This document shows positions 4,611 to 22,512 of a stretch of 64,000 bases of DNA, piece by piece (positions within the stretch are counted from its first letter, which is position 1; the number at the start of each line of letters is the position of its first letter). Both the position numbers and the translations under genes were made by a program. The notes beneath the pieces are model-generated. The model was not told where the DNA came from, did not search any database, and saw only the letters and a list, made by a program, of their open reading frames with translations. Source of the DNA: Oscillospiraceae bacterium (GTDB lineage: Bacteria > Bacillota > Clostridia > Oscillospirales > Ruminococcaceae); NCBI GenBank assembly GCA_016291435.1, contig JAEEXH010000001.1:59661-123660 (forward strand), given 5' to 3'.

Positions 4611-5900
4611 TTATTTGTATACCGGGAGCCATTCCGCTTTGCCTGCAAGCAGATCGGATACGCTGCATTTCAGGCCGTCACGGAGCGGGTCGATGCCCTC
4701 CATGGGGTCTGCCGTGCGCTCCAGGAGGATGACCGTGAGCGTTTCGTCGTCAGAGAACATGTGCAAGAGCTGCATGTCCTCCGGGATTGCGATGCTGCCG
4801 CAGATCTGCATATCGGTACTGAGCAGCAGCACGCTGTTTTCTGCGCTTTCTGTGTAGAGGTAGGTACCGTCAAAGAGCATATGCTCCCAGCTGACATCGC
4901 CCGCCGCCTGCATATCAAGCGCTGTGTCGGTATCGGTGCCGGGGTCGCGCAGAAGCATCCGGGGATTCCCTGCCGAGGCATCTATCCGGATGAAGCGCTC
5001 CGCAGAGGGTGCGATCGCGGGGATATTCCCGCCAAGATAGGTCTCTGCTTCGCCGGTCAGCAGGCTGACACGGTGAATGCCGTCGCCGCTGCGGGGCTGC
5101 TTTGGCTGCCAGAAGTAAAGATCATCGCCGCTGCCCCAGAGGGTAGTCGGTTCGGTGAGTTTGCCAGGTCTGCCGGCGGGCGGCATTTCCTCGCAAACGA
5201 CAAACTGCCGCTTTTCTCTCGGGTCATAGCCGATGACCGCATAGCCCCTGCGCGAACAGTCTGCCTGTGAACCGACGATTGTGTTGTCCTGAAAATCGGG
5301 ATCATCGAGGATGCTGATGAGTGCATACAGGCAGCCGCGGTGTACGCAGAAGTCGGTCACATCCGCGGCGGTATAGGGCATTTCCCAGTATGCCAGCTCC
5401 TCGATGCCGGTGCCGTCCGGCGCATAAGAAAGGAGTACGGGAAAAGAAAAGTCAAAGTTTCCGTTTTTCTTATCCGCAAAGGAATAGAGCGTGCCGTCCG
5501 CAGAGAGGAGCCATGTCCGGCGGTATGTGTCCGCTGAGGCTTCGCAGAATGCGCTGCCGTCGTGCAGACAGTTTGCACGGGCGCAGAGCGGAACCGCCGT
5601 GCCGCTTCTGTCGCAGAACTGATAAAGCGTCTGTCCGCTGCCGTCATATTCGTCGGTGCGGTAGTAAATGCCGTCTGCCGTCTCCGCGATGAGCGGCATC
5701 GGTTCATAGATGCTCCTGACGCGCGCAGAGGGATTATCCTTCTGCGCGGTCAGGGTCGGAGCGGCATAGCCTTCATCGGTGATGTGCTTTTCCGGCAAAG
5801 CGGCGCTGCTTTCTTTCAAGGGCTGCCCGTCCGAAGCCTCTGCGCAGGCAGTGAGCGTGCAGCAGAGCAGGAGGAGAGAAACACACACAGAGCGTTTCAT
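4611..5900 (-). CDS. lipoprotein paralog (P1) of the C-x4-C-x-H-x5-C ectodomain family; lacks the anti-sigma-like N-terminus
   Basis: 429 aa. The signal peptide has a lipobox (MKRSVCVSLLLLCCTLTAC). It contains PLCARANCLHDGSAFCEAS, LLSYAPDGTGIEELA, HRGCLY and a C-terminal SDLLAGKAEW, as in the other paralogs. RBS GAGGAGGG; only 12 nt separate it from the P2 stop. Confidence 0.85.
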   Translation of the reverse strand: MKRSVCVSLLLLCCTLTACAEASDGQPLKESSAALPEKHITDEGYAAPTLTAQKDNPSARVRSIYEPMPLIAETADGIYYRTDEYDGSGQTLYQFCDRSGTAVPLCARANCLHDGSAFCEASADTYRRTWLLSADGTLYSFADKKNGNFDFSFPVLLSYAPDGTGIEELAYWEMPYTAADVTDFCVHRGCLYALISILDDPDFQDNTIVGSQADCSRRGYAVIGYDPREKRQFVVCEEMPPAGRPGKLTEPTTLWGSGDDLYFWQPKQPRSGDGIHRVSLLTGEAETYLGGNIPAIAPSAERFIRIDASAGNPRMLLRDPGTDTDTALDMQAAGDVSWEHMLFDGTYLYTESAENSVLLLSTDMQICGSIAIPEDMQLLHMFSDDETLTVILLERTADPMEGIDPLRDGLKCSVSDLLAGKAEWLPVYK

Positions 5901-5912
5901 GCGGTGCCCTCC

Positions 5913-7553
5913 TCAGTGATAAATGATCTGCATATTATCGTCAATATGTGCTGCCTTGAGCGTAATATCGGAGACCTGAAGGAATTTCTCCCAGTCCTCC
6001 GAAGCGCTGCCCTTTCCGGCGAGCAGATCGCTGACACGGATGCGGTAAAGATAATCGTTCGGGTCCATCGTTTCGATGTCGCTTCTCCACTGCGCTTCAT
6101 ATTCTCCGTTTTCCAGCTGCGTGTGCGTCACCAGATGTTCGGAATTGCGCTGCATCACATACAGATAATCCCCGCGCAGAAAGCTGTCTGTCTGAGATTC
6201 CATGAAATCCGGCGCCGCGACCGTCTGCACAACACGGCAGTCATAATCACAGAGATACAGCACAAAGTTCGGATCTTCCCCCTCTGCCGGGGTCGAGACA
6301 AACAGCAGATAATCGTCATTCACCGAATAGTCATCCCAGTTCGGGTGTCCCTTGATCCCGGTTCTGTCCAGACGGGTCTCCTCGCCCGTGAACAGGTCAA
6401 GGCGCGTGAGCTTTGTGCCGTTTATGTCGCTGTCAAGCACGAAGCAGGCGTCCTTGCCGAACTGGATATTTGCGTCCATCGCCTGTTTGAGCGTCTTTAT
6501 CTCGAAGCTGTGCAGATCGAGCTGCTTGATGCTGCCGAGGATCAGGCTGTCGCCGTATCCCGCGATCATCCCGTAGGTGCCGCAGTCCCTCGATTCATCC
6601 GGCTCCGGCATGTTTATCGCAAGAATGCCGCCCTTGCCGGTCGCGAGCTCATAGCAGACGATCGCCGAGCCGCGGCAGCACGGCGAGCCTGCAACATCAC
6701 GGTTGGTCGCGTCCAGACCGACAGAGGCAAAGAGACAGCCGCGGTAAAGGATCACATCCACCACAGATGCGGCATATGTTTCATACGGGAATGAGAACCG
6801 CATGAGCTCCTCAATGCGGGTGCCGTCATTTGCATAGCGCAGAACCAGCGGCCCCCCGCCCCAGGAGCCGTCCTCATTGAGCGGCTGGGTGATCATATAG
6901 AGCTGATCGTCATAGCTGATGAAACGCCCCGGTGCATAGGCTTTCGTCGATGCCACGCAGTAGGGATTGCCGTCGTGCAGGCAGTTTGCCCGGGCGCAGA
7001 GCGGCACGCATTCGCCGGTCTCCTTGTCCTGATAATAATAGCAGCTGTGCTCGTTCTGCGCGCGCTGCGGAAAGCTCTCGGTGTTGTCCGGGTCATAGTT
7101 CAGCTCATACGTATCCTGCATGTAGTAAAGGCCGTCCGAGGTCTCTGCAAACCATGCCATCTCGTCATAGCGATAGCGCTGTCCGCCGAGATGATACGGC
7201 GCTGCCGTGCGCGTGTCATCCGTGAGACGGAGCGCCTCCGGCTGCTCCTGCACGCTGACAACTGCCGGTTCATTGCTGCTGCCGCGGTCAAAGATATTGC
7301 CGCCCTGCGAGCCGCGCATTGCGACGGCTGCCGCGATGCCGCCCGCGCCGAGCACTGCCGCCGTGATCGCGGCACCGATCGCGATTTTTCCGATTTTCCG
7401 TTTGTTTTCCCGCTTTTCCATTGTGCGTTTCCCTTTCCGGGATGCTGCTTCGGCACGCTGCTCCCGCACATAGTCCGCGATCATGTCATAATACCTGCGG
7501 TCTGCGTTCTTCACAGCGCGGCGGATCCGTTCCTCCGTGAGCTTCACAGCCAT
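5913..7553 (-). CDS. single-pass membrane sensor paralog P2 (putative anti-sigma of module 1)
   Basis: 546 aa. N-terminal ADRRYYDM motif, TM AAVLGAGGIAAAVAMRG and ectodomain PLCARANCLHDGNPYCVAS. The ATG at 7553 overlaps the sigma stop by 10 nt. Confidence 0.85.
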   Translation of the reverse strand: MAVKLTEERIRRAVKNADRRYYDMIADYVREQRAEAASRKGKRTMEKRENKRKIGKIAIGAAITAAVLGAGGIAAAVAMRGSQGGNIFDRGSSNEPAVVSVQEQPEALRLTDDTRTAAPYHLGGQRYRYDEMAWFAETSDGLYYMQDTYELNYDPDNTESFPQRAQNEHSCYYYQDKETGECVPLCARANCLHDGNPYCVASTKAYAPGRFISYDDQLYMITQPLNEDGSWGGGPLVLRYANDGTRIEELMRFSFPYETYAASVVDVILYRGCLFASVGLDATNRDVAGSPCCRGSAIVCYELATGKGGILAINMPEPDESRDCGTYGMIAGYGDSLILGSIKQLDLHSFEIKTLKQAMDANIQFGKDACFVLDSDINGTKLTRLDLFTGEETRLDRTGIKGHPNWDDYSVNDDYLLFVSTPAEGEDPNFVLYLCDYDCRVVQTVAAPDFMESQTDSFLRGDYLYVMQRNSEHLVTHTQLENGEYEAQWRSDIETMDPNDYLYRIRVSDLLAGKGSASEDWEKFLQVSDITLKAAHIDDNMQIIYH

Positions 7554-8104
7554 CCCTCCTCACTCAAGAATTTCCGCAGCTTTTTGCGGGTGCGCATCAG
7601 CGTGACGGTCACCCGGCTCTGCGAGATGCCGAAGGCTTCGGCGATCTCCCGCGTGCTGCGGTCGTTTCCGTAGTAATGCACAAAGATCATGACAGTCATC
7701 TTCGGGAGCGTCTTCAGAAACCGCCCGACTGCTTCATCCAGAAGCCGCTCCTCCATGAGCTGCTCGATGGAATCGCCTGCCGGCTCCCTGCCGCGGCTAA
7801 GATCGTGGAGCGGGATCTCCGCCTGTCCGCCGCCGCGCTTCTTTGCCTGCTTCTGCTCCGCACGGTTGAGCGAAAGCCGCTTCACCGTCGTGTGCAGATA
7901 GGCGCCGAAGCTCTTCGGGGCTGCGGGCGGGACTGCGCTCCAGACTTGCAGCAGCGCGTCGTTCCAGACCTCCTCTGCGTCCTGCTCGCTGTGCAGAATG
8001 CGCATCGCGAGCTTTTTGCAGGCGCCGCCGTACTGCGCCGTCAGCGCCCTGAGCGCCGATTCATCGCGCTTTTGCAGCAGCGTTAAGATCTGCCTGTCCG
8101 TCAT
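7544..8104 (-). CDS. ECF-type sigma-70 family factor (module 1)
   Basis: 186 aa. Region 2-like DAEEVWNDALLQVWSAVPP...YLHTTVKRLSLNR and a region 4 HTH REIAEAFGISQSRVTVTLMRTRKKLRKFL. Confidence 0.88.
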   Translation of the reverse strand: MTDRQILTLLQKRDESALRALTAQYGGACKKLAMRILHSEQDAEEVWNDALLQVWSAVPPAAPKSFGAYLHTTVKRLSLNRAEQKQAKKRGGGQAEIPLHDLSRGREPAGDSIEQLMEERLLDEAVGRFLKTLPKMTVMIFVHYYGNDRSTREIAEAFGISQSRVTVTLMRTRKKLRKFLSEEGWL

Positions 8105-8191
8105 TGTTCATCACTTCCCTGCGTGTTTGAGTGGGAAAGGCGTTCCGGAACCGTCATTCCCCCGTCATATGAGTGTCACTCTGTATTAGTA

Positions 8192-8219: not shown

Positions 8220-8260
8220 CCTGCGGGGAAAATTTTTATTGCGGGCAATCCATTCCTCCT

Positions 8261-9949
8261 TTATTCGAGCGGCCCGTATTCATGATCCCAGCCGTTCTCA
8301 TAGAATGTGCCGTCATCGGGATTGTAACAGTAGTTGTGGATCAGCGTACACTGCGGCTCCCATTCCGGGCTGCCGCTCAGCAGTGAATCAATGCTGCACC
8401 GGCAGAGCACGCCGGGCGTCTCGCCGTCGCCGACATAGAGCACGCCTTCCGCATTCTTCTCGATCGCGTTGTAATCCAGCGCATAGAGGAAGCCGTCGCG
8501 CACCGACAGCTTGCGCAGCGCATGCCGGAAGCGATAGCTGACCGTTTGCAGAAGCTCACGGCTCGCAAGGTCGTAGACGCTGATGCGGTATTCCGCCTTC
8601 TGTACGCCGTCCTCCTTCATCACAACACGGCTCAGGCCGTAGAATCTGCTGCCGTCTGTCGTATAATCCTCAAATGCCGCATCCAAGAGCTTTTCGGATT
8701 CGCCGGTGTCAAGATTCATTTTCATGGTGTAGGATACATTCGGCGTGCGCACCTGATAAATCAAAGTGCTGCCGCACATCGTAAAGCCCGTCATGCCGTT
8801 ATTGGCACCCGAGACAACCTGCCTGTGCGCGCCTGTTTTCAGATCTATCGCAAAAATGCCGTTGCTGTTTTTCGCCTGCCAGTCGCCGCCGCCGATCTGA
8901 TAGCAGAGCCAGTCGCCGCCCGCACAGAGCATGACAGGCGTCGGATATATGATGTTCGACTCCGCATCCGGCATCGAGCGGTAAAGCTCCAGCGTCTTGC
9001 CGGTCGCGATCTCATAGCCGAAGATGGCGTAGCCTGTGTTGGATGTGTTCTCATCGCTCGGATTCTCGGGGTTGAAATCCGCCAGACGGTGATGCAGCTC
9101 TGCCATCCACCAGACATAGCCGCGGTGAATGACAGGCGTGCCGATGGGCATGGAGCATTCCGCCTTGATGCGGGCAAGCTCCGTGATGCCGGTGCCGTCG
9201 GGCGCATAGGAGAGCAGATAGGTGTATTCGCTGTTATACTGATCACGGTCTCCGGCTGCGGCATAGAGCACGCCGTCATAGGCAACAAGCCCGTGCTGCA
9301 CATATTTTTCCACAGACGCTTCGCAGAAATCATCGCCGTAATGCAGACAGTTCGGTCTTGCACAGAGCGGCACCTCCCCGCCGGATTCCGCATCGCTGTA
9401 TCCGATTATGCTTATGCCGCTTCGGTGGTCGGCATAAAACTTCGTGATCAGCTCATCCTGTTCGGTTTCGTCAAGCTGCGCGAGCGTATCATATGCGAAT
9501 GTGTTGACGATCGAGTGATACCAGCCGGTATCGGAGGCGGTGTACCAGAAACTGTAATTCTCAAGCGGACTGTGGAACCGCTGTGCCGAGTTGTCCCACT
9601 GCTGATCGGTGAGATGCAGCCCGAGTGTGTTCTGCTCTGTCTGCCCCGAAAGCTCCGCGGCACGGCTGCTGCCGTCAGACTGATTGTTTCCGCCGTTTGT
9701 GCCGCGCATTGCAACGATTGCCGCCATGCCGCCGCCGCCCAGCACTGCCGCCGCGAGCACCCCCGCGAACACATATTTCCCGATCCTCCGCCGCTTTTCT
9801 CTGCGCTGTTCTTTTTCCATATCAAATGCCTTTCCCTTCTGCCTCTGCGCGAACTCCGAAGGAGAGCAAAGTCTTGCGGAAAGCTCCGCAAAATACCGCT
9901 GATCGGCACGCGGCAAAGCATGCAGAAAGGCGCGTTCCTTTTTGTTCAC
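8261..9949 (-). CDS. single-pass membrane sensor paralog P3 (putative anti-sigma of module 2)
   Basis: 562 aa. The GTG start at 9949 overlaps the sigma stop (GTGA). TM AAAVLGGGGMAAIVAMRG and ectodomain PLCARPNCLHYGDDFCEAS. Confidence 0.85.
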   Translation of the reverse strand: MNKKERAFLHALPRADQRYFAELSARLCSPSEFAQRQKGKAFDMEKEQRREKRRRIGKYVFAGVLAAAVLGGGGMAAIVAMRGTNGGNNQSDGSSRAAELSGQTEQNTLGLHLTDQQWDNSAQRFHSPLENYSFWYTASDTGWYHSIVNTFAYDTLAQLDETEQDELITKFYADHRSGISIIGYSDAESGGEVPLCARPNCLHYGDDFCEASVEKYVQHGLVAYDGVLYAAAGDRDQYNSEYTYLLSYAPDGTGITELARIKAECSMPIGTPVIHRGYVWWMAELHHRLADFNPENPSDENTSNTGYAIFGYEIATGKTLELYRSMPDAESNIIYPTPVMLCAGGDWLCYQIGGGDWQAKNSNGIFAIDLKTGAHRQVVSGANNGMTGFTMCGSTLIYQVRTPNVSYTMKMNLDTGESEKLLDAAFEDYTTDGSRFYGLSRVVMKEDGVQKAEYRISVYDLASRELLQTVSYRFRHALRKLSVRDGFLYALDYNAIEKNAEGVLYVGDGETPGVLCRCSIDSLLSGSPEWEPQCTLIHNYCYNPDDGTFYENGWDHEYGPLE

Positions 9950-10515
9950 AATAAGCCCTCCCCGTTCAGAAATTTTCGCAGCTTAAGGCGTGTGCGCATC
10001 AGCGTGACAGCCGCCTTGCTGTAAGTGATCGCAAAGGCATCCGCGATCTCCCCGACCGACTTCCCGTTCACATAGCGGTGCAGGAAGATGGTGCGGGCTT
10101 CGGGTGTGAGCGTTGACAGAAAGCGGTTGACCGCCTCTGTCATCAGTGCTTCATCCATGATCTGCTCAACGGAGACCTTTGCGGGCTGCTGCCGCGCCGC
10201 TGCATCGTCGAGTGAAAGCTCCGGCAGACCGCCGCCGCGCTTTTTCGCGCGCTGTTTCTCGCGTTTCTGATATGCGTGCCGCCTGAGAACGGTGCAGAGA
10301 TAGGCAAAAAGATCCTCCGGCTCAGCGGGCGGAATCGCATTCCAGAGGCTCAGGAGCGTATCGTTCCAGACCTCTTTCGCGTCCTCCTCGGAGTGCAGGA
10401 TATTTGCCGCAATGTTTCTGCCGGCGCCGCCGTATTTTTTCGATACGGCTCGGAGCGCTTTTTCGTCCCGCGCTGCAAACAGAGCGAGAATCTGCTTGTC
10501 TTCCGTTGCAATCAC
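9946..10515 (-). CDS. ECF-type sigma-70 family factor (module 2)
   Basis: 189 aa paralog of 7544-8104 (EEDAKEVWNDTLLSLWNAIPP...; HTH GEIADAFAITYSKAAVTLMRTRLKLRKFL). The start is GTG at 10515 or the adjacent ATT; see findings. Confidence 0.85.
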   Translation of the reverse strand: MIATEDKQILALFAARDEKALRAVSKKYGGAGRNIAANILHSEEDAKEVWNDTLLSLWNAIPPAEPEDLFAYLCTVLRRHAYQKREKQRAKKRGGGLPELSLDDAAARQQPAKVSVEQIMDEALMTEAVNRFLSTLTPEARTIFLHRYVNGKSVGEIADAFAITYSKAAVTLMRTRLKLRKFLNGEGLL

Positions 10516-10552
10516 TTCCTTTCCATGAGATAGAGACCGTCTCTATTTCACC

Positions 10553-10626: not shown

Positions 10627-12261
10627 TTATTTGAGCGACACCTCCGAGAGCGTCAGCACGGTCTCGCAGTCTGAAGCATCCGTATCTCCGCGCAGCACAT
10701 CCGCCGTCGGGATGCGGCAGAGACAGGCGTTTGCGTCCGCGTCCGGATTGAAGTCGCCTTCCCTGATCAGACCGTCCTCATAGATAGTGTCGTAGCGAAG
10801 ATCGAAGCCGTCCGTCACAAACCAGAGATACCCGTCACGGACAAAATACCGCAGGATTTTGCCGCGCGATGTAAGGTCGATGCGTGCAAGCGTTCTGCCC
10901 GCCGCATCCCCGACCGCGATCCCGTGCGCATGCGTATCTTCCCCGTAATCTGACCACTGCCAGAAGGTATACTCCCCCTGCTTCAGCACAAACGGGAACG
11001 CCTCGCCCGCATCGCCGAGCTTCTGCCGCATCCCCTTCGTGATCTCGCCGGTTTCGTAATCGCAGAACTTATACGCCGGTTCAATGCCTGCGTCATCCCT
11101 GTAATAAATGCCGTCTGTACCCGCAAAGAAGTCCCCCGCGTACAGACGCACATTTTCCTCGAGCCGTTCGCAGGCAAATGTGCCGAGATCCATGCGGTAA
11201 ATACCGCTGTGTGTGCCTGTTTCGAGCGCATAGAGCGCACTGCCTTTGCACCAGATCTGCTCCGGGCTGCCGTATACCGTATGCTCGCCTTCCGGCGGGA
11301 GATTCAGATACAGCGTATACGCCTGCTTTTCCGCAAAGTCATAGCAGACAACTGCCCAGCCGCCGCGCACGGCTTTGGTGACGGTGCCGACATCCGGCTG
11401 CTCCGTGACCGCCTGCTCTGCAACAGAGAGCGCCGCAAAGAGATACCCTTTGTGGATGCAGAAATCCTGCACCGCGATCTGTGCATTCGGCAGGTCGCTT
11501 GTGAACTGCACAAGCTCCTCGATTCCGGTACCGTCAGGCGCATAGGAGAGCAGGAAGCAGCCCTTGCTGTCTGCGCCTCTGCCCTTTTCCGCAACGGTAT
11601 AAAGCCCGCCGTCCCAGCTCAGCAGATGATGTGTCTCATAGGCTTTTGTCGATGCCTCGCAGTATTCATTGCCGTCGTGCAGACAGTTTGCCCTTGCACA
11701 GAGCGGCACGGTCTCGCCGGTCGCCTTGTCCTTGTAGCAGAAATAATCTGCCGTGATCTCCGTCTGTTCTTCCGGCGGGGCATATTTGTCCCTCCTGCGG
11801 AAGAACCAGCCGTTCTCTGTTTCCGTGACATACGGATTCACGCTGATGCCGCGCAGACTGTCTGCAATGTAATAATCCTGCTCCGGCATGAGCCGCGCGG
11901 TGAAATCGTCATCGCCGCCCTCCGTGAGACGGAGCGCCGGGGTATCGACCCCTTCCGTGATATTTTTCAGTTTGACACCGACGGTGTTCCGCTGAAAGAT
12001 GCTGCCGCCCTGCGTGCCGCGCATTGCAACGATTGCCGCCATGCCGCCCGCGCCGAGCACTGCCGCCGCGATCAAACCCGCGGCCGCGATTTTTCCGATT
12101 CTGCCGATTTTCCCTCTGGTTTCCCGCTGCTTCATAAGACGCTGTCCTTTCCGGGCAGCCGTTTCACTGCGGTGCCGTTCGATGCGGCGCGTCACCATAT
12201 CAAAATAGCGGCGGTCTGCACGCTCGACAGCTTGCAGAAAATCCTTTTCCGTGATCTTCAC
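10627..12261 (-). CDS. single-pass membrane sensor paralog P4 (putative anti-sigma of module 3)
   Basis: 544 aa. ADRRYFDM, TM AAAVLGAGGMAAIVAMRG and PLCARANCLHDGNEYCEAS (codons 11659-11700). 4-nt overlap with the sigma stop. Confidence 0.85.
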   Translation of the reverse strand: MKITEKDFLQAVERADRRYFDMVTRRIERHRSETAARKGQRLMKQRETRGKIGRIGKIAAAGLIAAAVLGAGGMAAIVAMRGTQGGSIFQRNTVGVKLKNITEGVDTPALRLTEGGDDDFTARLMPEQDYYIADSLRGISVNPYVTETENGWFFRRRDKYAPPEEQTEITADYFCYKDKATGETVPLCARANCLHDGNEYCEASTKAYETHHLLSWDGGLYTVAEKGRGADSKGCFLLSYAPDGTGIEELVQFTSDLPNAQIAVQDFCIHKGYLFAALSVAEQAVTEQPDVGTVTKAVRGGWAVVCYDFAEKQAYTLYLNLPPEGEHTVYGSPEQIWCKGSALYALETGTHSGIYRMDLGTFACERLEENVRLYAGDFFAGTDGIYYRDDAGIEPAYKFCDYETGEITKGMRQKLGDAGEAFPFVLKQGEYTFWQWSDYGEDTHAHGIAVGDAAGRTLARIDLTSRGKILRYFVRDGYLWFVTDGFDLRYDTIYEDGLIREGDFNPDADANACLCRIPTADVLRGDTDASDCETVLTLSEVSLK

Positions 12262-12824: not shown

Positions 12825-12899
12825 TGTGATCACTTCCATTCCGTTTGTGTGCGCGGTTCCGGAGCCGCAGCACTGTGCAGAGAATTCTCTGTACTGGTA

Positions 12900-15228: not shown

Positions 15229-15267
15229 CCTCCGGATATATTTTTATATTTTATCTTTTTCAGATAT

Positions 15268-15451
15268 GAATTCGCAATGCGCAATTCGCAGTGCGCAATG
15301 AAGGTGTCGGCTTGCGCCGACGAATTTGGATTGAGCTCTGCCCAACCCTGACAAACAGATTACTTACGCCAAGGGGCTTGGGCGTCAGCCCCATTCATAA
15401 TCATCGCGAAGCGATACCGCCATTGCGCATTTCGCATTGCAAATTGCGCAC
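15268..15451. repeat. MITE-like element with GCGCAATG-type terminal inverted repeats and internal mini-hairpins
   Basis: Left end gaattcgcaatgcgcaattcgcagtgcgcaatg; right end cattgcgcatttcgcattgcaaattgcgc. The core (gtcggcttgcgccgac ... gcccc attcataatcatcgcgaagcgatac) is the reverse complement of the core at 60791-60963. Confidence 0.8.
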
Positions 15452-15459
15452 TGATTCTG

Positions 15460-17097
15460 TCAGTTTTCGGGTTCAGGGTGCTCCGCACGCCATGCCTCCA
15501 TGTCGATCTCGTGCATCTTCACCAGCGTACACGCCTGCTTCCATTCCGCATTGCCCGCAAGCAGCGCCTCCCGGCTGCATGACAGCACGGCGGCATCCTT
15601 TGCGATGATGCCGGATGTCTCCTGGATTTGCCCCTGATACTCCGTAATGACGCCGTCCGTGATGACTGTGACCGTGTCGCCGAACACCATGATTCTCCGC
15701 ACGCACTGATGATCGGGCACGCGCAGGGAGGCGACCTCCTTGCCCGTCATATCCAGCACGCGCACAGCATAGCTCATAACCTCCCTGCTTTTATCCGCCT
15801 CAGCCGAGTAGATATAGCTTCCGTCCGTCACAGAGTACGAGAGCGAGCCGTTATACAGCGTTTCCGTTTCGCCGGTCGCCGCATCGGTTGATTTTACCTT
15901 GTCCGGCGTGGCATCAAAATCCGTGTAATAGACTTTGCTGCCGGATACGGCAAAAACAGCCTCCTTATCCACGAGCTGTTTATGGCTGCCGTCTGTGAGA
16001 TTCAGCGCATAGATGCCTTGTTTGTTGGTATTCTGCCATGTGCCGTTTCCTATGGAATAGAACAGATAATCGCCGCCTGCCGAAAAAGTCCACGGTGCAT
16101 CTTGCCTGATACCGGAGCCTGCCTTCGGCATACAGCTATAGATCTCCGTCGCCTTGCCCGTGGCAATCTCATAGCCGAGAATCGCATAGCCGCTGTCGCT
16201 TTTTGTCACAAAGCCCGCCGCATCATATTCCAGCGGATTGATTTTCATGAAAATGCAGAACACATAGCCGCGGTGAACAACCGGTGTGCAGATCACATCG
16301 GTATACTGCTCGCCGAATGTGCAGAGCTCGGTGATGCCCGTGCCGTCCGGCGCATAGGAAAGCAGCACGGCGGTTGTCTTTTTCGGTACTGTTCCATCCG
16401 ATTTCAGTTCATCGAAATTCAGCGTTTTCAGCGCGGAAGCGTAGATCACGCCGTCCACACAGACCGGATCCGAGCGGCGGTAGGTATTCGAGGTCGCTTC
16501 GCAGTATATGCTGCCGTCATGCAGGCAGTTCGGTCTTGCGCAGAGCGGCACATCCTCGCCGGTTTCGCCGTCGCAGAACATGAGCGGCAGGTTTTCCAGA
16601 TAAAGCTTCGTCGGATACAACTCCTGCTGTGCTTCAAAGAACTCCTCGCCGAGCTCGCCGTCTGAGGGCGCTGCCGTCTCATCATAGCTGTGATACCAGC
16701 CGTTTTCGGTCGGGAACGCACAGCCGTAACCCGTGCTGCCATAGGAATCCGACTGCATGGCATTCCACTGCTGATCGGTGAGATTGAGACTGAGCGCTTC
16801 CGCGTGCTGCTCCTCGACCATACTGCGCATGTCGCGGGATTCCTCGCTGACGATGCCGAAGCCGCCGCGCATCGCGACCGCTGCCGCAATGCCGCCTCCG
16901 CCGACGAGTGCCGCTGCGAGCACCACGCCCCACGCAAGCTTCTTGTGATGTTTTTTCTCCGCAGATTTCATTTTGCGTGTTCCTCCTGCTCCGTATTTCG
17001 CTGCGAAAGCCTGAGGATCCGCTGCCCGGTCTGCGGCCATTTTGAAGAAACGGCGGTCTGCGCCTTTGACCGCACGCAAAAATTCCTTTTCCGTCAT
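15460..17097 (-). CDS. single-pass membrane sensor paralog P6 (putative anti-sigma of module 5)
   Basis: 545 aa. ADRRFFKM, TM LAAALVGGGGIAAAVAMRG and PLCARPNCLHDGSIYCEAT. ATGA overlap with the sigma stop. Confidence 0.85.
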   Translation of the reverse strand: MTEKEFLRAVKGADRRFFKMAADRAADPQAFAAKYGAGGTRKMKSAEKKHHKKLAWGVVLAAALVGGGGIAAAVAMRGGFGIVSEESRDMRSMVEEQHAEALSLNLTDQQWNAMQSDSYGSTGYGCAFPTENGWYHSYDETAAPSDGELGEEFFEAQQELYPTKLYLENLPLMFCDGETGEDVPLCARPNCLHDGSIYCEATSNTYRRSDPVCVDGVIYASALKTLNFDELKSDGTVPKKTTAVLLSYAPDGTGITELCTFGEQYTDVICTPVVHRGYVFCIFMKINPLEYDAAGFVTKSDSGYAILGYEIATGKATEIYSCMPKAGSGIRQDAPWTFSAGGDYLFYSIGNGTWQNTNKQGIYALNLTDGSHKQLVDKEAVFAVSGSKVYYTDFDATPDKVKSTDAATGETETLYNGSLSYSVTDGSYIYSAEADKSREVMSYAVRVLDMTGKEVASLRVPDHQCVRRIMVFGDTVTVITDGVITEYQGQIQETSGIIAKDAAVLSCSREALLAGNAEWKQACTLVKMHEIDMEAWRAEHPEPEN

Positions 17098-17663
17098 AGC
17101 CAGCCCTCCTCATTCAGATACTTTTTCAGCTTGATGCGGGTGCGCATCAGACTGAGCGCAGCCTTGTTCCGTGAAATTTGGTACATGTCTGCGATCTCCG
17201 CGATGCTTTTGCCGTTGCCGTAGCGCTGCACAAAGATCGTGCAGGCATCGGGCGAAAGCGACTGCAAAAAGCGGTTGACCGCATCGTTCAGGAAAATCGC
17301 GCCGACCGTTTCCTCGACCGCATTGCGTGCGGGCTGGGCGTGCTCGGGGAGATTTTCGAGCGACAGTGCCGCCTGTCCGCCGCCGCGCTTCTGCGCGTTC
17401 CTCTGATCGAGCCGTTTATAGCAAAGATTGCGCACAACGGTCGTGAGATAGGCGTAGAAATTATCGGGGCGTGCGGGCGGGATTGCATTCCAGACCTGCA
17501 TCAGTGCATCGTTTAAGACCTCCTCCGCGTCCTGCTCGGAATGGAGCAGATGCGCGGCGAGATTTCTGCATGCCCTGCCGTATTGCTTCGAGACCGCAGC
17601 GAGGGCAGCTTCATCGCGTGCAAAGAACAGATCGAGGATCTGCCTGTCGTTCAATGTGATCAC
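17094..17663 (-). CDS. ECF-type sigma-70 family factor (module 5)
   Basis: 189 aa paralog. The track start is GTG at 17663. By alignment with module 3 (ATG AAC GAC AGG CAG), the TTG at 17654 (TTG AAC GAC AGG CAG) is an alternative start. Confidence 0.82.
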   Translation of the reverse strand: MITLNDRQILDLFFARDEAALAAVSKQYGRACRNLAAHLLHSEQDAEEVLNDALMQVWNAIPPARPDNFYAYLTTVVRNLCYKRLDQRNAQKRGGGQAALSLENLPEHAQPARNAVEETVGAIFLNDAVNRFLQSLSPDACTIFVQRYGNGKSIAEIADMYQISRNKAALSLMRTRIKLKKYLNEEGWL

Positions 17664-17862: not shown

Positions 17863-19485
17863 TCAGCCGTAGGCCGCTTCAGCAGTGACAAATTCAAACA
17901 CCGTCTCCCAGTGCGGATCATCTGCGATCAGATCAGATAGATCACAGCAGAGGAGCTTCGCCGATTCGCTCTTCTGCCGCTTCTGCACCGAAATCTCCGG
18001 GTCCTGCGTGTAATAATACAGCTGATACAGCTTTCCGTCATGCACCTTCATGTTGCCGAAGACCGCATTCTCAGGGCGCTGCACGCTTGCGATCTGATTC
18101 CATTCGCTGTCAAAAATCACGGTCACATCACGCGAGCTGCCCGATGTGTTTTCGTAATCGGTGCGCTCGGCAATCACATAATCGCCTGCCTGCACAAGCC
18201 GATGGTAATTGTCCCTCATATCGAACGGGAGCTCCGTATTCTCGCCGGTTTCAAGGTCATAGCTGTAATTCAGATAGATCGGTGTGCCACTGCCGTGTTC
18301 CTTTGCGGCATCCGTCTTATAATAGATTTTCTGCTTTGCCGCAAACAGAAGATTCTGCGATATTTCATAGCCCGCAAGCGGGAGCTTTTCGCAGGCGCCG
18401 GTCACAAGATTGATCGCATAGATTCCCTTCGGCTCGGGCGACGGCCATTTCGCAAACTGATAGCTGAAATAGATTCTGTCGCCTGCCGCCAAAAGAGATC
18501 CGTTCGGCACATCGTATTCCTTGCCCTCGTCCGCGCCCGGCATCGAGCGGAAGATCTCCGCTGTTTTGCCGCTTGCCAGCTCATAGCCCCGGATAACAAA
18601 GCCGCTCGAAACCTGCCGCTTTGTTTCGCCTGTGAATTCATCCCCGGTTTCCTCGCCGTAATAGCTGTAATCTTTGTAGACCGCAAAGATGCAGCCGCGA
18701 TGCAGGATCGGGTCGCCGATCAGCTCCGCCTTCGGGTGCACATCAAAGTGTGCAAGCTCCGTGATGCCGCTGCCGTCCGGCGCATAGGCGAGCACATAGC
18801 CCGCGTCATATCCGCCCTTGTCGTTTCGCTTCGAGGCAAGCGCATAGAGCGCATCGCCGTAAGGGATCAGCGCCGAGCGGTCGGCATAGCCCTTTGTGGA
18901 GGCTTCGCAGAAATCGCTGCCGTCGTGGAGACAGTTTGCGCGCGCGCAGAGCGGCAGCGTTTCGCCGGTCTCGCTGTCTGTGAAGACAACGCCGTGATTC
19001 ATCGGCAGATTTTCATACCAGTCAAGATAGCCGAGACCGTCATAATTGCCGTCTGCATCCGTTTTGATCTCGGTGCGATAGATCTGCTCGTGATAAAAGC
19101 CCTTGTCTGTCGCAGCAAACCAGAGATGCTCCTGCGGGGATACAGACTGCCCGTAGCTTTTGCAGAAGAGATCGTTCCATTCCTGATTTGTGAGCGTCAG
19201 CCCGCTTTGCGCGGTGACAGTCTGCTCCGTGTGATTGTTTCCGCCGTGTGCACCGCGCAGCGCGACCGTTGCCGCTATGCCGCCCGCACCGAGCACTGCC
19301 GCGGCGATCACCGCAGTGAGCGCATATTTTGTGATGCGCCGGATCTTTTGCTTTTGCATGAGATGCCTTCCCTTCCGGGCGGCTGCCCCAGCTTTTGTCT
19401 CCGCAATGCGGCGCTTCACCATGTCATAATATCTGCTGTCCGCCTCCCGCACGGCGGCGCGCAGTATCTGATCATCCAGCTTCAC
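17863..19485 (-). CDS. single-pass membrane sensor paralog P7 (putative anti-sigma of module 6)
   Basis: 540 aa. ADSRYYDM, TM AAAVLGAGGIAATVALRG and PLCARANCLHDGSDFCEAS. 4-nt overlap with the sigma stop. Confidence 0.85.
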   Translation of the reverse strand: MKLDDQILRAAVREADSRYYDMVKRRIAETKAGAAARKGRHLMQKQKIRRITKYALTAVIAAAVLGAGGIAATVALRGAHGGNNHTEQTVTAQSGLTLTNQEWNDLFCKSYGQSVSPQEHLWFAATDKGFYHEQIYRTEIKTDADGNYDGLGYLDWYENLPMNHGVVFTDSETGETLPLCARANCLHDGSDFCEASTKGYADRSALIPYGDALYALASKRNDKGGYDAGYVLAYAPDGSGITELAHFDVHPKAELIGDPILHRGCIFAVYKDYSYYGEETGDEFTGETKRQVSSGFVIRGYELASGKTAEIFRSMPGADEGKEYDVPNGSLLAAGDRIYFSYQFAKWPSPEPKGIYAINLVTGACEKLPLAGYEISQNLLFAAKQKIYYKTDAAKEHGSGTPIYLNYSYDLETGENTELPFDMRDNYHRLVQAGDYVIAERTDYENTSGSSRDVTVIFDSEWNQIASVQRPENAVFGNMKVHDGKLYQLYYYTQDPEISVQKRQKSESAKLLCCDLSDLIADDPHWETVFEFVTAEAAYG

Positions 19486-20048
19486 AGCCTGCCCTCCTTA
19501 TCGAGCCATTTCCACAGCTTCCTGCGGGTGCGCATCAGCGTCACGGCAACCTTGCTCTGCGTGATGCCGAACGCCTCAGCGATCTCGCGGATGCTGCGGC
19601 CGTTTCCGTAGTAATGCACAAAGATCGTGACAGTCTCCTCCGGCTGCGTGCCGAGAAAGCGGTTCACAGACGCATAGAGCGCACGGGCATCCATAAGCTC
19701 CTCCACGCTTTTCCCGGCGGGGTGCAGGCTTTCCGGCAGCGCATCGAGCGAAACCGGGCTTCTGCCGCCGCCGCGCTTCTGCGCGTTTCTCTGCTCCAGA
19801 CGGTTGAGCGAAAGCCGCTTCACCACCGTATGCAGATAGGCGCCGAGACTGCGCGGCTGCTCCGGCGGAATGCTGCTCCAGATTTGCAGCAGCGCATCGT
19901 TCCAGACCTCTGCCGCGTCCTCCTCGCTTCCGAGCAGGCGGCAGGCGAGCTTTCTGCACTGTGTCCCGTACTGCGCCGTCAGCTCCCGCAGTGCCGTTTC
20001 ATCGCGGCTTTGCAGGAGACGGAGAATCTGTCTGTCGGTCAATGTCAT
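19482..20048 (-). CDS. ECF-type sigma-70 family factor (module 6)
   Basis: ATG at 20048 (MTLTDRQILRLLQ) follows GAAAGGAAG. The track extension to 20261 runs through the promoter motif and a repeat element and is rejected. Confidence 0.85.
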   Translation of the reverse strand: MTLTDRQILRLLQSRDETALRELTAQYGTQCRKLACRLLGSEEDAAEVWNDALLQIWSSIPPEQPRSLGAYLHTVVKRLSLNRLEQRNAQKRGGGRSPVSLDALPESLHPAGKSVEELMDARALYASVNRFLGTQPEETVTIFVHYYGNGRSIREIAEAFGITQSKVAVTLMRTRRKLWKWLDKEGRL

Positions 20049-20122
20049 CACTTCCTTTCGGGCGGTAAAGCTGCGCTCCGGAGCACATCTCCGCCTTTCC
20101 AGAGGCGTCCCTCTACAATACA

Positions 20123-20150
20123 TGACAGGAAACAGGGAAAGTTTCTTACA
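20123..20150 (-). promoter_or_regulatory. ECF-type promoter-like motif TGTAAG-N16-CTGTCA (module 6)
   Basis: Minus-strand reading: TGTAAG aaactttccctgtttc CTGTCA tgtattGTAGAGGG. Confidence 0.5.
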
Positions 20151-20262
20151 ATGCGGAATGCGCAATGGCAGTATCGCTCCGCGATGATGGATCATGGGCG
20201 AAGCCCATTCTGAATCATCGGCGAAAGCCGACACTTTCATTGCGCATTGCAAATTGCACATT
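20150..20262. repeat. short member of the GCGCAATG-TIR MITE-like family
   Basis: gcggaatgcgcaatggcagtatcgctccgcgatgat...gggcgaagccc...ggcgaaagccgacactttcattgcgcattgcaaattgc. Confidence 0.75.
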
Positions 20263-20274
20263 GAGCATTCAATT

Positions 20275-20748
20275 TTATTCGGGTTCCAGCTCCATGCGGA
20301 GACGCTGATGCCCGCGCCGGAGCCATGCGCTCACGGTGTTCGGCCTGGCATCGAGCATTTCTGCGATCTCGCGGATCTTGTAGCCCGCGCAGTCGTGGAG
20401 ATAGACCGCCGCGGAATAGGGCTGCGGCAGTGCGGCGATCAGTGCAAGGATCTCCGCGGAATTGTCGGGCTCCGCGGGCAGGTCTGCGATGTCCTCCACA
20501 TCCGTCCGCATGCGGCTCCAGAGGCTTTTCCGCAGATTCTTTGCGCGGTTCATCACGGCGCGCAGGATATACGCTTTCAGGTGCGCGTCGCTTTCAAACT
20601 GCACGGGCTTTCTGTGCAGCGCAAAGAACACCTCCTGTGCGATGTCCTCCGCGTCCTCGCGGCTGCCCGTTGCACAGTAAGCCGCCTGCAATGCCGTGTC
20701 GCCGAATTTCCGGAAGGCATAGAGCGCGATGTTTTCCTGATTCAGCAT
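20275..20748 (-). CDS. ECF sigma factor of a different lineage (157 aa; module 7, located downstream of its membrane partner)
   Basis: Region 2 DAEDIAQEVFFALHRKP...YILRAVMNRAKNLRK and region 4 YKIREIAEMLDARPNTVSAWLRRGHQRL. The ATG at 20748 lies 9 nt after the P8 stop, with GGAGTGAGG upstream. Confidence 0.88.
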   Translation of the reverse strand: MLNQENIALYAFRKFGDTALQAAYCATGSREDAEDIAQEVFFALHRKPVQFESDAHLKAYILRAVMNRAKNLRKSLWSRMRTDVEDIADLPAEPDNSAEILALIAALPQPYSAAVYLHDCAGYKIREIAEMLDARPNTVSAWLRRGHQRLRMELEPE

Positions 20749-20757
20749 CGCCGCACC

Positions 20758-22512
20758 TCACTCCGCATTGCGGAACGCCGGCTTCCACTCCGCTTTGCCG
20801 CTCAGAATGTCCTCCATGCTGCAAGCGTAGTCAAAAAGCGCATAGCGCAGGAAGACCTCGCCGCTTCTGCCGATGTGTACGCGGGCCATCAGTGTGTTCG
20901 CTTCCTCTGTTGCCTCCGGCCAGACCGCGTGCAGCTCCTCGCCGTGCGTTTTCCATTCCAGATACGGGTCAAGCGGCGCGCGCTTCAGAAGCGTGCCGTC
21001 CCAGTCATAGAGCCAGAGCTCGACGGCGTCATAGCCGTTGGCGAATTCGTTGGGATCAGACATCAGGAAGCAGATCGCATCCCTGCCCGCGGCAACAACA
21101 CCGCCGATGCCGAGTCCGTGACCTGTCGGGGTCACGAAGCTGCCGGTATCGTCCGTGTGGCGCATAATGCAGGTCTCAGTGCGGGTCTCCGTGTCATAGA
21201 TCATGTAGTCGTCATAAATCTCCGCGTCCATGCCGCTGCGCACCTCGACCTGCTTCGGGTAAAAGATCTTCCCGCCGTTCACGGTGAACCGATCGGGCGG
21301 CGTGTCGTTTGTTTCCGTGAGCCGCGTCAGCCCGCCGTCTGTGCAGGAGAGCTGCCAGAGCCCGGTGCGCAGCTTGTTCGGCTCATCCCATCTGCCCTTT
21401 GCATCGAAGCTGAAATAGATATAATCGCCCTCGCCTGCCAGTGCGCGGAAGCCGCTCCTGCCTCCGAAGCCGTATTCCTGACCGTCGGCAGAAAGGAGTG
21501 TGCTGCCCTGCCCGGTCTCCGGGTCATAGAATCCCATGCGGTACCCGCAGAGCGCTCTGCCGTCGCTCGGGAGCTCCTGCACGCCTGCCGCATACCAGAG
21601 CTTGCCGCGGTGCGCGATGAGCTTCGCTTCGTCTGCTTCAAGCCCGAACCGCATCCTGCCGCTCTGCGACGCGGAATCCGCCGGCGAATCCATGATCTCG
21701 GCGGCCTCCGTGATGCCCGTGCCGTCCGGCTCATATCGGAGCAGCACGATCTTTCCCTCGCCGTAACCGTCCACATCCCCGCGGTCATCGGGCTTTTTCG
21801 CAACAGCATAGACATAGCCGTCCAGCCAAACAGGGCCTGTTTTCAGGCGGTAGGTGAGCGTGGTCGCCGTGCAGAATTCGCTGCCGTCGTGGAGACAGTT
21901 CGGGCGGTTGCAGAGCGGCACGAGGGCATCGCTCTCCTTGTCGGCAAACATCATCGTATAGGTGCGCTCGCTTGCCCGCGATCCGACATCCCAGTCACGT
22001 TTTTTGAGATAATAATAGCCCTGCTCCGATTCCGTCAGACACTCCTCCGGGTAATAGCCGCGCATGCCCTGTTCGTCCTGCTGATCGGTGAGATGCAGAC
22101 TGAAGCCCTCCCCGACAACGCGGTCTGCGGTGTGCGTCTGCTCTGCGGCGGAGCGCTCTGCTTGGCTTTCTGCACTGCGGCTATCCTCTGCGCCGCTGCT
22201 TGTCTGATCGACCTGCACGCTGCCGCGCCGCTGCATCGCGACTGCCGCCGTGATGCCCCCTGCACCGAGCACCGCCGCTGTCAGAACCGCGATCAGCACA
22301 TTTCTGCGAATCCGTTTCCGTTCCATTCTCATATCCTCCTCTGTCATCACATCGTCCATCGACAGCAGATCGGTCTCGATGAAGGCTTCATCGGGGTCGT
22401 CAATCGGCTCCGGCACTTTCACATTCTGCCGGAGCGCCGCTTCGATGGAAAGCCGCTTTTCCGCATCCCAGCGGACGGTCGAGACCGCATATCGGTATGC
22501 TGCCTTTTTCAT
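20758..22512 (-). CDS. single-pass membrane sensor paralog P8 (module 7; divergent N-terminus)
   Basis: 584 aa. TM VLIAVLTAAVLGAGGITAAVAM, ectodomain PLCNRPNCLHDGSEFCTAT, LLRYEPDGTGITEAA, HRGKLW and a C-terminal EDILSGKAEW. RBS AAAGGAGGA. Confidence 0.85.
   Translation of the reverse strand: MKKAAYRYAVSTVRWDAEKRLSIEAALRQNVKVPEPIDDPDEAFIETDLLSMDDVMTEEDMRMERKRIRRNVLIAVLTAAVLGAGGITAAVAMQRRGSVQVDQTSSGAEDSRSAESQAERSAAEQTHTADRVVGEGFSLHLTDQQDEQGMRGYYPEECLTESEQGYYYLKKRDWDVGSRASERTYTMMFADKESDALVPLCNRPNCLHDGSEFCTATTLTYRLKTGPVWLDGYVYAVAKKPDDRGDVDGYGEGKIVLLRYEPDGTGITEAAEIMDSPADSASQSGRMRFGLEADEAKLIAHRGKLWYAAGVQELPSDGRALCGYRMGFYDPETGQGSTLLSADGQEYGFGGRSGFRALAGEGDYIYFSFDAKGRWDEPNKLRTGLWQLSCTDGGLTRLTETNDTPPDRFTVNGGKIFYPKQVEVRSGMDAEIYDDYMIYDTETRTETCIMRHTDDTGSFVTPTGHGLGIGGVVAAGRDAICFLMSDPNEFANGYDAVELWLYDWDGTLLKRAPLDPYLEWKTHGEELHAVWPEATEEANTLMARVHIGRSGEVFLRYALFDYACSMEDILSGKAEWKPAFRNAE

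Follow-up and report, generated by a model that had tools for sequence, protein, structure and literature searches.

Tandem ECF sigma factors coupled to propeller-type candidate anti-sigma sensors beside a putative ABC-2-type exporter in an Oscillospiraceae bacterium

Pairs of extracytoplasmic function (ECF) sigma factors and anti-sigma factors are a major class of bacterial signalling systems, in which the sensor domain and the stimulus are mostly undetermined. A stretch of 64,000 nucleotides from an Oscillospiraceae bacterium (GCA_016291435.1, contig JAEEXH010000001.1; hereafter the window) raises this question in a multiplied form: between positions 4611 and 22512, its minus strand carries eight paralogous open reading frames (ORFs) of 429-584 residues together with seven sigma factor ORFs. 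What do these paralogues sense, and what do the sigma factors control? The reading favored here, to which we give a probability of roughly 0.55, is that the minus-strand locus 1540-22586 is one regulatory-plus-effector unit, in which seven propeller-type anti-sigma sensors would converge on an exporter of the ABC-2 kind (ABC, ATP-binding cassette). The functional unit is thus larger than 4611-22512, the limits drawn by the first-pass annotation of this DNA: it begins with a promoter at 22557-22586 and includes the ABC transporter genes at 1540-4504. Related loci were fetched for comparison and are designated L001-L023.

The array of paralogues and sigma ORFs reported by the first-pass annotation is present on the minus strand at its coordinates, and its order can be read from the distal promoter towards the transporter. 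The first gene encodes A8 (20758-22512), a 584-residue single-pass propeller protein with a cytoplasmic tail called type B (YRYAVSTVRWDAEKRLSIEAAL), which is the putative anti-sigma of sigma7 (20275-20748; 157 residues), encoded downstream of it. Six modules follow, each made up of a sigma gene and the gene of an anti-sigma-like propeller protein: sigma6 (19482-20048; 188 residues from MTLTDRQ, within an ORF that reaches 20261) and A6 (17863-19485; 540 residues; 4-nucleotide overlap), sigma5 (17094-17663; 189 residues) and A5 (15460-17097; 545 residues), sigma4 (14604-15173; 189 residues) and A4 (12985-14613; 542 residues; 10-nucleotide overlap), sigma3 (12258-12824; 188 residues from MNDRQ, within an ORF that reaches 12962) and A3 (10627-12261; 544 residues), sigma2 (9946-10515; 189 residues) and A2 (8261-9949; 562 residues), and sigma1 (7544-8104; 186 residues) and A1 (5913-7553; 546 residues; 10-nucleotide overlap). 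The coordinates agree with the six overlaps initially described: each of sigma1-6 overlaps the start of the next paralogue by 4 or 10 nucleotides. The last paralogue, L0 (4611-5900; 429 residues), is a lipoprotein form of the propeller that has no cytoplasmic tail. Its N-terminus is MKRSVCVSLLLLCCTLTAC, where L-T-A-C fits the lipobox [LVI][ASTVI][GAS]C (by sequence inspection only), so the description of all eight paralogues as single-pass proteins stands for seven of them and fails for this one, which has a lipoprotein-type signal. The array is followed by the genes of an ABC ATPase, probably of the ABC-2 (DrrA/GldA-like) type (3617-4504), and of a 694-residue permease (1540-3624), a putative fused double ABC-2 protein, all on the minus strand. 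Across the array, domain or homologue matches could be assigned solely to minus-strand ORFs; the long ORFs on the plus strand are antisense shadows of the kind often seen where the GC content is high (here 0.55-0.61).

All seven sigma factors contain Sigma70_r2 and Sigma70_r4_2, which bears out their identification as ECF sigma factors. They have the features of this group (group 4), that is, sigma2 and sigma4 domains, no sigma3 and about 150-200 residues, and the three that were scanned (sigma1, sigma5 and sigma7) pass the ECF superfamily model TIGR02937 (58-83 bits, cut-off 42.9), with all the specific NCBIfam sigma models remaining below cut-off for the scanned sequences. They had been taken for seven sigma factors of one kind. 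In fact, six are of one type (sigma1-6, 186-189 residues, mutually 50-66% identical) and the 157-residue sigma7 is of another, being about 22% identical to these six. The recognition helices of sigma1, 2, 3, 4 and 6 are near-identical (..SKVAVTLMRTR..) and so are their -35 elements, whereas the recognition helix of sigma5 deviates (..NKAALSLMRTR..), as does the sigma5 promoter; five channels would probably cross-activate, with the sixth, that of sigma5, partly insulated.

The way in which the sigma genes are coupled to their partners suggests that the latter are anti-sigma factors. Anti-sigma genes usually show a start/stop overlap with an ECF sigma gene and encode a protein that crosses the membrane once, with its N-terminus inside. 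In the A proteins, a K/R-rich segment precedes the single transmembrane helix (sequence reading), so the N-terminus is expected to be cytoplasmic, and the anti-sigma-type arrangement of sigma genes and single-pass partners that had been proposed is supported by both the overlaps and this segment. The evolution of the modules points in the same direction. In a Mantel test on 14 non-redundant modules, sigma and tail distances are correlated (r = 0.61, p = 2e-4, partly from shared duplication history; nearest neighbours match in 9/14), whereas sigma and ectodomain distances are not (r = 0.02, p = 0.40). Since the sigma factor tracks the tail but not the ectodomain, it seems that sigma and tail are inherited as a unit and that the ectodomain is not. 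The type of tail also matches the type of sigma factor, as A tails occur with the sigma1-6 kind and B tails with sigma7-like proteins: type-B tails adjoin sigma7-type genes in L004, L005, L012 and L014, and in L021 a type-B protein comes after a 178-residue sigma70-family gene, one that the sigma7 query had missed. The tails may then act as anti-sigma segments, each binding its cognate sigma factor.

The tails have no recognizable relatives among anti-sigma domains. They lack a His/Cys motif, have no zf-HC2, RskA or related match and are only about 50 residues long, unlike the class I anti-sigma domain (ASD), which has four helices and about 80-90 residues, and its zinc-binding form, the zinc-binding anti-sigma (ZAS) domain; the absence of the HxxxCxxC ZAS motif that had been remarked upon is thereby corroborated. 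The best tail match is NF052375 (E = 0.042, 13.9 bits for a cut-off of 100). A 49-residue tail profile yielded chance matches only in PDB sequences and Pfam, and nothing at E≤0.01 in a collection of 5.8 billion proteins. Similarly, no paralogue has a FecR match and no TonB-dependent receptor was found among the genes of the locus, contrary to the pairs of polysaccharide utilization loci (PULs). As far as these profile searches tell, no described anti-sigma family includes the partners, and they belong neither to the RsgI nor to the FecR-type proteins. The tail motif ADRR(Y/F)(Y/F), reported from six tails, is exact in four; the two others have one substitution (ADQRYF and ADSRYY).

The eight paralogues are 23-33% identical when aligned to the first sequence. 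The block C-x4-C-x-H-x5-C is common to all of them (invariant residues C188, N192, C193, L194, H195, G197 and C201 in the numbering of the 544-residue protein), and the motif C-x4-C-x-H-x4-7-C is kept in about 150 of the 161 best family representatives. If Gly, Tyr and Leu are left aside, it is three Cys and one His that are invariant, and no enzyme-like residues are evident; the invariance of this Cys3His motif while the rest of the ectodomain varies suggests a structural site. The AlphaFold2 model of A5, based on a 30-sequence alignment, has a mean predicted local distance difference test (pLDDT) score of 75 and a predicted template modelling (pTM) score of 0.74; its residues 250-540 (pLDDT 85-95) are all beta. 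A Foldseek search of the PDB with this model retrieved the propellers of prolyl oligopeptidase/S9 peptidases, TolB, oligogalacturonate lyase, LRP6 and 3s25. According to the model, the ectodomain is a beta-propeller, as had been guessed from the sequence; it has 7-8 blades and an invariant Cys3His motif. It had also been called an unrecognised sensor domain, a description with which we agree; it matches no named anti-sigma or sensor family.

The relationship of the ectodomain to Pfam DUF5050 (PF16472) and TolB is marginal. A5 reaches 31.6 bits with DUF5050 (gathering threshold 27) over profile positions 43-166 of 283 and A2 scores 17.3 bits, while the six other paralogues have no match and distant family members do not exceed 15 bits; the cut-off is therefore reached by one of eight window paralogues, over a partial profile. 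NCBIfam returned no match for the window paralogues, and a profile search of PDB sequences with the propeller detected TolB (E = 1e-4). The weak sequence similarity to DUF5050/TolB-type propellers spans 2-3 blades. The fold of 3s25, the structure that represents DUF5050 (EUBREC_1955 from Eubacterium rectale, 7-bladed and propeller-like), is alike (Foldseek TM-score 0.57 on target), and the DUF5050 family is also found in gut Clostridia. Nevertheless, the description of DUF5050, for which, to our knowledge, no function is known, mentions neither a Cys3His motif nor a fusion to anti-sigma tails nor a link with ABC genes.

The propeller family is much larger than its annotation suggests. A word-indexed search found 24 relatives, without Pfam domain or informative name, and an exhaustive HMMER search of 50%-identity clusters found 2448 (E 1e-3), 525 (1e-10) or 106 (1e-30). 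Four or more kinds of N-terminus are borne by the propeller among the best 161 representatives: the type A tail (motif 'ADRRYF'), the type B tail ('Y..AV..IRW...QR..IE', as in A8), the type C tail ('..YLDEA') and a plain lipoprotein or signal anchor. All genome matches come from metagenome-assembled genomes (MAGs) of uncultured Oscillospiraceae, Ruminococcus or Clostridia from rumen and gut. In two related loci (L010:11248-14780 and L012:15005-18543), the exporter genes are directly followed by the gene of a regulator of the Fur family and by an operon for zinc uptake (ZnuA/ABC-3). Zinc sensing was considered on account of the Cys3His motif and of this Zur/ZnuA neighbourhood, and set aside as the main idea because the neighbourhood was not found in the window and because the constancy of the motif speaks for a structural site.

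An indication of what the array may control comes from its genomic context. The fetched loci were scanned with profiles of the paralogues, of the sigma factors and of the two genes that come after the array in the window. Homologues of the ATPase and of the permease (~690 residues) follow the last propeller gene in every sufficiently long locus (L002-L006, L010-L013 and L017-L020, also L021-L023). In close relatives, the layout is a 584-type paralogue, a 157-residue sigma, N modules of sigma and anti-sigma, optionally the 429-residue lipoprotein, the ATPase and the permease, N being 4 in L012 and L013, 5 in L014 and L017 and 6 in the window. Other arrangements are a type-B paralogue, a sigma7-type sigma and a second type-B paralogue before the ABC genes (L004, L005), or one sigma, one type-B paralogue and four short-anchored propellers before them (L021). 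In more distant Clostridia, the propeller-ABC cassette adjoins a two-component system of the LytTR/HPK10 type; thus, in L018-L020, a LytTR response regulator, a HATPase_c_5 kinase and 1-3 lipoprotein propellers precede the ABC genes. Free lipoprotein propellers stand before the ABC genes in L017, L018-L020 and L021. Three to four tandem propeller paralogues occur without a sigma array in L018:2795-8744 and L021:2007-7846, so multiplied propellers are a trait of the cassette at large, whether or not they are fused to anti-sigma tails. L018 also carries a second permease paralogue.

The kind of transporter is indicated by profile and structure searches. The ATPase is closest to the GldA (196 bits) and DrrA (182 bits) models, both below their equivalog cut-offs. 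For the permease, searches of Pfam, NCBIfam and PDB sequences gave no match; its 67 homologues are all unnamed, one distant homologue having ABC2_membrane_3 (PF12698). Its AlphaFold model (pLDDT 85.6) looks like two halves of the ABC-2 kind joined together, and the best structural matches, with weak E-values, are PmtCD, NosY, ABCG5/8 and Wzm (TM-score on target ~0.55). The type V (ABC-2) exporters PmtCD and NosFY are the best structural match of each half. Contrary to them, the window permease has, by its model, both halves fused in one chain, with long helical insertions after the first transmembrane helix of each, and it lacks a Pfam or NCBIfam family. Hence, what accompanies the propeller family in a conserved manner is a predicted, uncharacterised ABC-2 exporter and not carbohydrate-active enzymes (CAZymes). 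In L018 (645-2687), and also in L019, the membrane sensor region of the HATPase_c_5 kinase is homologous to one permease half (phmmer 31-34 bits) and shares with it the N..KT..DY and QS...F..C motifs, which are conserved in the permease. It seems that in this lineage a part of the transporter has been borrowed for the sensor of the regulator, just as the propeller has been for the anti-sigmas, which would fit a general rule whereby the regulators of the cassette borrow transporter parts.

The promoters provide a possible link between the sigma factors and the transporter. Upstream of sigma1-6, an A/T-rich tract is followed by TGTAA-N15-TCCGnTC. The minus-strand sites are P6 (20124-20150; TGTAA-N15-TCCTGTC), P5 (17697-17723), P4 (15202-15228), P3 (12901-12927), P2 (10554-10580) and P1 (8193-8219); P5 is the variant TGAAAT-N14-AACCGTTC (TGAAAT...ACCGTTC). 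In the window, the motif occurs at 0-1 mismatch solely upstream of five of sigma1-6, the sigma5 site being a 2-mismatch variant. In the window and about 370 kb of related loci, its 22 unique occurrences are all on the sense strand, just 5' of an array-type sigma gene. It is the predicted autoregulatory promoter of sigma1-6, and a conserved promoter of its own for each of the six fits the multi-channel sensor bank that had been envisaged. A second motif, TGCACGAAAAC-N12-TTGTATAT, occurs before the A8-sigma7 operon (22557-22586, minus strand, 1 mismatch) and again at 4553-4582 (minus strand), in the 106-nucleotide gap between the L0 and ATPase genes and 49 nucleotides before the ATPase ATG; the chance expectation is 0.79 matches at 2 mismatches. 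In the other loci, this motif lies 5' of type-B operons and of ABC or propeller genes: it is found 5' of the first type-B paralogue in L001, L004, L005, L008 and L014, and before the ABC genes in L017. We read it as the sigma7 promoter type, from which both the A8-sigma7 operon and the ABC genes would be transcribed. Apart from those of the array and of the ABC transporter, no gene of the window is preceded by either promoter type, the dockerin GH127 gene (see below) included. Only 35 nucleotides, without a sigma7-type promoter, separate the last anti-sigma gene from the ABC genes in L010 and L012, so the latter must there be co-transcribed with the last module. No minus-strand intrinsic terminator was predicted between the modules of the window.

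Other elements accompany these promoters. A conserved ACAGAG(G) follows the -10 element of both promoter types (e.g. at 10526-10550, 12875-12894, 4540-4548 and 22544-22552). Where the promoter is of the array type, this motif belongs to a short palindrome, AGAGnn..nnCTCT, the inner bases of which vary compensatingly. The palindrome was considered as a leader hairpin, yet the sigma7-type promoters carry just the ACAGAGGG half, so the element is better called a conserved start-region motif; a role at the start site, in a leader hairpin or as an operator is conceivable. Two inverted-repeat elements lie between modules, at 20149-20263, between sigma7 and the sigma6 promoter, and at 15266-15455, with 51-nucleotide arms; the folding energy of 15255-15459 is -88 kcal/mol (z = -5.3). 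They resemble repetitive extragenic palindromic (REP) sequences or miniature inverted-repeat transposable elements (MITEs), consist of 7-nucleotide TGCGCAA/TTGCGAA repeats in long inverted arms and recur at 28978-29000, 60794-60823 and 60944-60959. The two inter-module copies could terminate or stabilise transcripts.

Taken together, these data suggest the following mechanism. The effector would be an uncharacterised ABC-2-type exporter, composed of the ATPase and the double permease and working with extracellular Cys3His propellers, of which L0 would be the free lipoprotein form. In the present lineage, the propeller would have been fused, via a Gly/Ala-rich membrane helix, to short cytoplasmic anti-sigma tails, giving rise to seven sensor/sigma pairs: A8/sigma7, with its type-B tail, and six type-A 'ADRRYF' pairs. 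The binding of an extracellular ligand to a given propeller would be followed by the removal of the anti-sigma, most likely by regulated intramembrane proteolysis. Substrates of site-2 proteases typically have Ala-rich helices with helix breakers, and signal-peptidase-type site-1 cuts are known from RsiV. The transmembrane helix of the paralogues ends in an AXA-like (A/I/T)-V-A↓M-R-G sequence and contains a GAGG helix breaker; the former fits a signal-peptidase-type site-1 cut, and the latter, with the Ala-rich helix, fits site-2 protease substrates, so this kind of proteolysis is consistent with both. The cognate sigma factor would thereby be freed. Sigma7 would fire its own promoter and the almost identical one directly before the ABC genes, and each of sigma1-6 would fire its own autoregulatory promoter, reaching the ABC genes by read-through and cross-activation. 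Indeed, since no terminators were predicted between the modules, transcription should continue through the downstream modules and L0 into the ABC genes, and since the promoters are nearly identical, the channels probably cross-activate. The bank would in that case behave as an OR gate that switches on the exporter. Gene anatomy, predicted fold and promoters, synteny, co-variation and hypervariability come directly from the analysis; sigma binding, proteolytic release, read-through, export function and the class of ligand are the steps that we infer.

If the modules converge on a single exporter, why should there be so many of them? Their variability may provide an answer. Among the window paralogues, the transmembrane and juxtamembrane segment (..AAAVLGAGGIAAxVAMRG..) is 44-94% identical, the corresponding values being 20-34% (ectodomain) and 15-45% (tail). 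In the 30-sequence family alignment, several residues of this segment are near-invariant, and its coding DNA, which is 97% identical between two neighbours, forms an island of identity in module-to-module alignments. The window was also compared with the near-identical strains represented by L014 and L017. Sigma1, 2, 4, 5, 6 and 7 are 99-100% identical to those of the window, the ATPase 100%, the permease 99% (on an aligned fragment of 188 residues), L0 98% and A8 97%. The values are about 94% for A1, A2 and A4, 80.5% for A6 and 70% for A5, and module 3 is wholly absent from both strains. The strain differences in the A proteins are confined to the ectodomain: the first 90 residues of A5 are 96-100% identical and its whole ectodomain 36-80%, and in A6 a segment of about 120 residues (about 330-450) has been replaced (26-33% identity). 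The sensors thus appear to vary and recombine on a fixed signalling chassis. A possible snapshot of this process is provided by L010:1000-7883, where the middle one of three adjacent modules is an exact chimera of its neighbours. Its promoter, sigma and tail are 100% identical to the downstream neighbour, and the stretch from the transmembrane-coding segment through the ectodomain is 100% identical to the upstream one. As the junction lies in the transmembrane-coding DNA, this is the product expected of one unequal crossover at the transmembrane-coding repeat.

The fast diversification and recombination of the ectodomains, while sigma, tail and transmembrane segment stay fixed, suggests that the system faces a changing set of external ligands. 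The hypervariability of the ectodomains between strains, the variation in module number and the LytTR/HPK10-type neighbour in other Clostridia make ligands derived from competitors the likeliest class: antimicrobial peptides, bacteriocins, toxins or other envelope-active compounds. This is the weakest step of our reading and is offered tentatively, with the odds rather against it. It is at best conceivable, and we hold it with no greater conviction, that the locus is a recombining receptor repertoire. In that scenario, parallel ECF channels would have recruited the exporter's accessory propeller as their sensor. The transmembrane-coding segment would be both release switch and recombination joint, and at this joint strains could exchange or duplicate their hypervariable ectodomains and combine them anew with constant sigma/tail units, thereby updating which competitor toxins or peptides induce the shared exporter.

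Several other scenarios may explain the array. The one put forward by the first-pass annotation is a polysaccharide-sensing bank, functionally analogous to SigI/RsgI or to the regulators of PULs, in which each propeller would bind a plant glycan and induce the matching CAZymes elsewhere in the genome. The hosts are indeed rumen and gut Oscillospiraceae and Ruminococcus MAGs, the window contains a dockerin-bearing gene of glycoside hydrolase (GH) family 127 (45262-48726), propellers that bind or cleave glycans, e.g. oligogalacturonate lyase, are among the Foldseek matches, and sigma1-6 could have distant targets invisible in 64 kb. Yet synteny is conserved with the ABC-2 exporter instead of CAZyme genes, the ATPase and the ~690-residue permease being the partner in all long-enough loci, and neither promoter type was found before the GH127 gene or any window gene outside the locus. 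Moreover, the partners have no carbohydrate-binding module (CBM), GH or RsgI_N domain, the sigma factors are canonical ECF and not of the SigI type, and the cassette adjoins a LytTR/HPK10 system in other Clostridia. Polysaccharide sensing and the analogy with SigI/RsgI or PUL regulators thus seem improbable to us. Just as doubtful is the idea that the propellers are mainly exporter subunits, dedicated for instance to the capture or hand-over of substrate at the surface, with tails that are mere anchors, sigma factors that are controlled otherwise and overlaps that only ensure co-expression. Tail-less lipoprotein or short-anchor propellers do accompany the transporter, often in several copies (L017, L018-L021), and the tail matches no anti-sigma family. 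Nevertheless, it is the tail that co-varies with the sigma factor and not the ectodomain, type A tails pair with sigma1-6 and type B tails with sigma7-like proteins, and overlap and topology are those of anti-sigma factors. Besides, the two roles are not exclusive, as the fused forms could serve both. Slightly less credible still is generic sensing of cell-envelope stress, in which redundant propellers would watch the wall or membrane of their own cell through TolB-like contacts with peptidoglycan or lipoproteins. Many ECF systems of Firmicutes answer envelope stress, and the propellers resemble those of TolB in sequence and structure. However, a sensor of the cell itself would hardly be hypervariable and recombine between strains with 99-100% identical sigmas, nor would presence/absence variation of whole modules be expected.

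Convergence of seven anti-sigma sensors on an exporter remains our preferred reading, and several observations weigh against it. The tail, about 50 residues long, matches no known anti-sigma domain in Pfam, NCBIfam or PDB sequences. The confidence of the A5 model is low in the tail, in the transmembrane region and in the Cys3His segment, and the fold matches of the permease are weak (E ~0.07-0.3). The absence of predicted terminators is the sole basis for read-through, and two intergenic regions have long stable hairpins that could insulate the modules. Sigma1-6 may have targets elsewhere in the genome, beyond the 64-kb window. Finally, the chimeric module of L010 was seen in a single metagenome assembled from short reads and may be an artefact of that assembly.

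How does this system compare with characterized ones? The ligand-binding ectodomain of RsiV and its signal-peptidase site are well established. The SigW/RsiW and SigV/RsiV pairs of Bacillus subtilis, in which the sigma factor is freed by regulated intramembrane proteolysis, share with the present pairs a sigma factor of sigma2 and sigma4 domains only, a co-transcribed and coupled single-pass N-in partner, an autoregulatory promoter with conserved -35 and -10 elements and an Ala/Gly-rich transmembrane helix; RsiV also has a ligand-binding ectodomain, as is proposed for the A proteins, and the AXA-like junction after their transmembrane helix recalls its signal-peptidase site. In contrast to them, the present tail has about 50 residues and no ASD, ZAS, DUF4179 or RskA match, the ectodomain is, by its model, a Cys3His propeller, six pairs are in tandem with near-identical promoters, and the ectodomains appear to recombine independently of sigma and tail. 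With SigI/RsgI of Clostridium (Acetivibrio) thermocellum, the array shares several paralogous pairs that carry differing extracellular sensors on single-pass anti-sigmas. Yet its sigma factors are standard ECF proteins without sigmaI-C, the partners lack RsgI_N, the predicted sensors are propellers and not CBM, PA14 or GH modules, and the pairs form one tandem array beside an ABC exporter, whereas those of SigI/RsgI are scattered and tied to cellulosome genes. The transporter-linked modules of antimicrobial-peptide resistance, namely the LanI lipoprotein with the LanFEG ABC-2 immunity transporters and BceRS-BceAB, combine, as the present locus may do, an ABC-2-like exporter, an extracellular lipoprotein that assists it and a dedicated envelope-spanning sensor, sensing being tied to transporter components. 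The present proteins nonetheless have no sequence relationship to LanI, LanFEG or BceB/FtsX, and it is ECF sigmas, not a two-component system, that would regulate the present lineage. The main text of the ECF reclassification (PMC7826278) does not mention propeller or DUF5050 partners, and no published description of the present system was found in the literature on DUF5050, anti-sigma propellers, ECF and ABC combinations or tandem ECF genes in Clostridia.

The Cys3His beta-propeller would thus be a sensor fold that has not been described for anti-sigma factors, and a short candidate anti-sigma tail without family assignment would be added to ECF signalling. A concrete output can also be proposed, namely an unannotated family of putative ABC-2 exporters, which the present searches retrieved mainly from MAGs of Oscillospiraceae and other Clostridia. 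The sensor bank may expand and re-pair its modules by recombination at the conserved transmembrane-coding segment, and its ectodomains differ by up to 30% between strains with identical sigmas. If the ligands were bacteriocins or other antagonistic molecules, the system would be a marker of competition between strains in the rumen and the gut. Synthetic circuits might also be built from the six sigma/anti-sigma pairs, although their near-identical promoters leave orthogonality to be shown first.

The remaining observations concern the rest of the window. An Rfam scan of positions 1-24000 for a leader RNA gave no match. The array is bordered by genes of leucine/branched-chain amino-acid biosynthesis (22919-28970, plus strand; leuA, the acetolactate synthase large subunit gene ilvB and leuC), and the same junction is found in GCA_016648615.1. 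A putative gene at 39977-43549 (minus strand) consists of a 1190-residue ORF that has no Pfam match at E≤1e-5. The gene at 45262-48726 (minus strand), about 23 kb from the array, encodes a beta-L-arabinofuranosidase of family GH127 that carries a type I dockerin at its C-terminus, an indication that the organism has a scaffold system of the cellulosome or amylosome type. Further downstream on the plus strand (58057-58398) lies the transfer-messenger RNA (tmRNA) gene, the tag peptide of which is ENNDSVLMAA.

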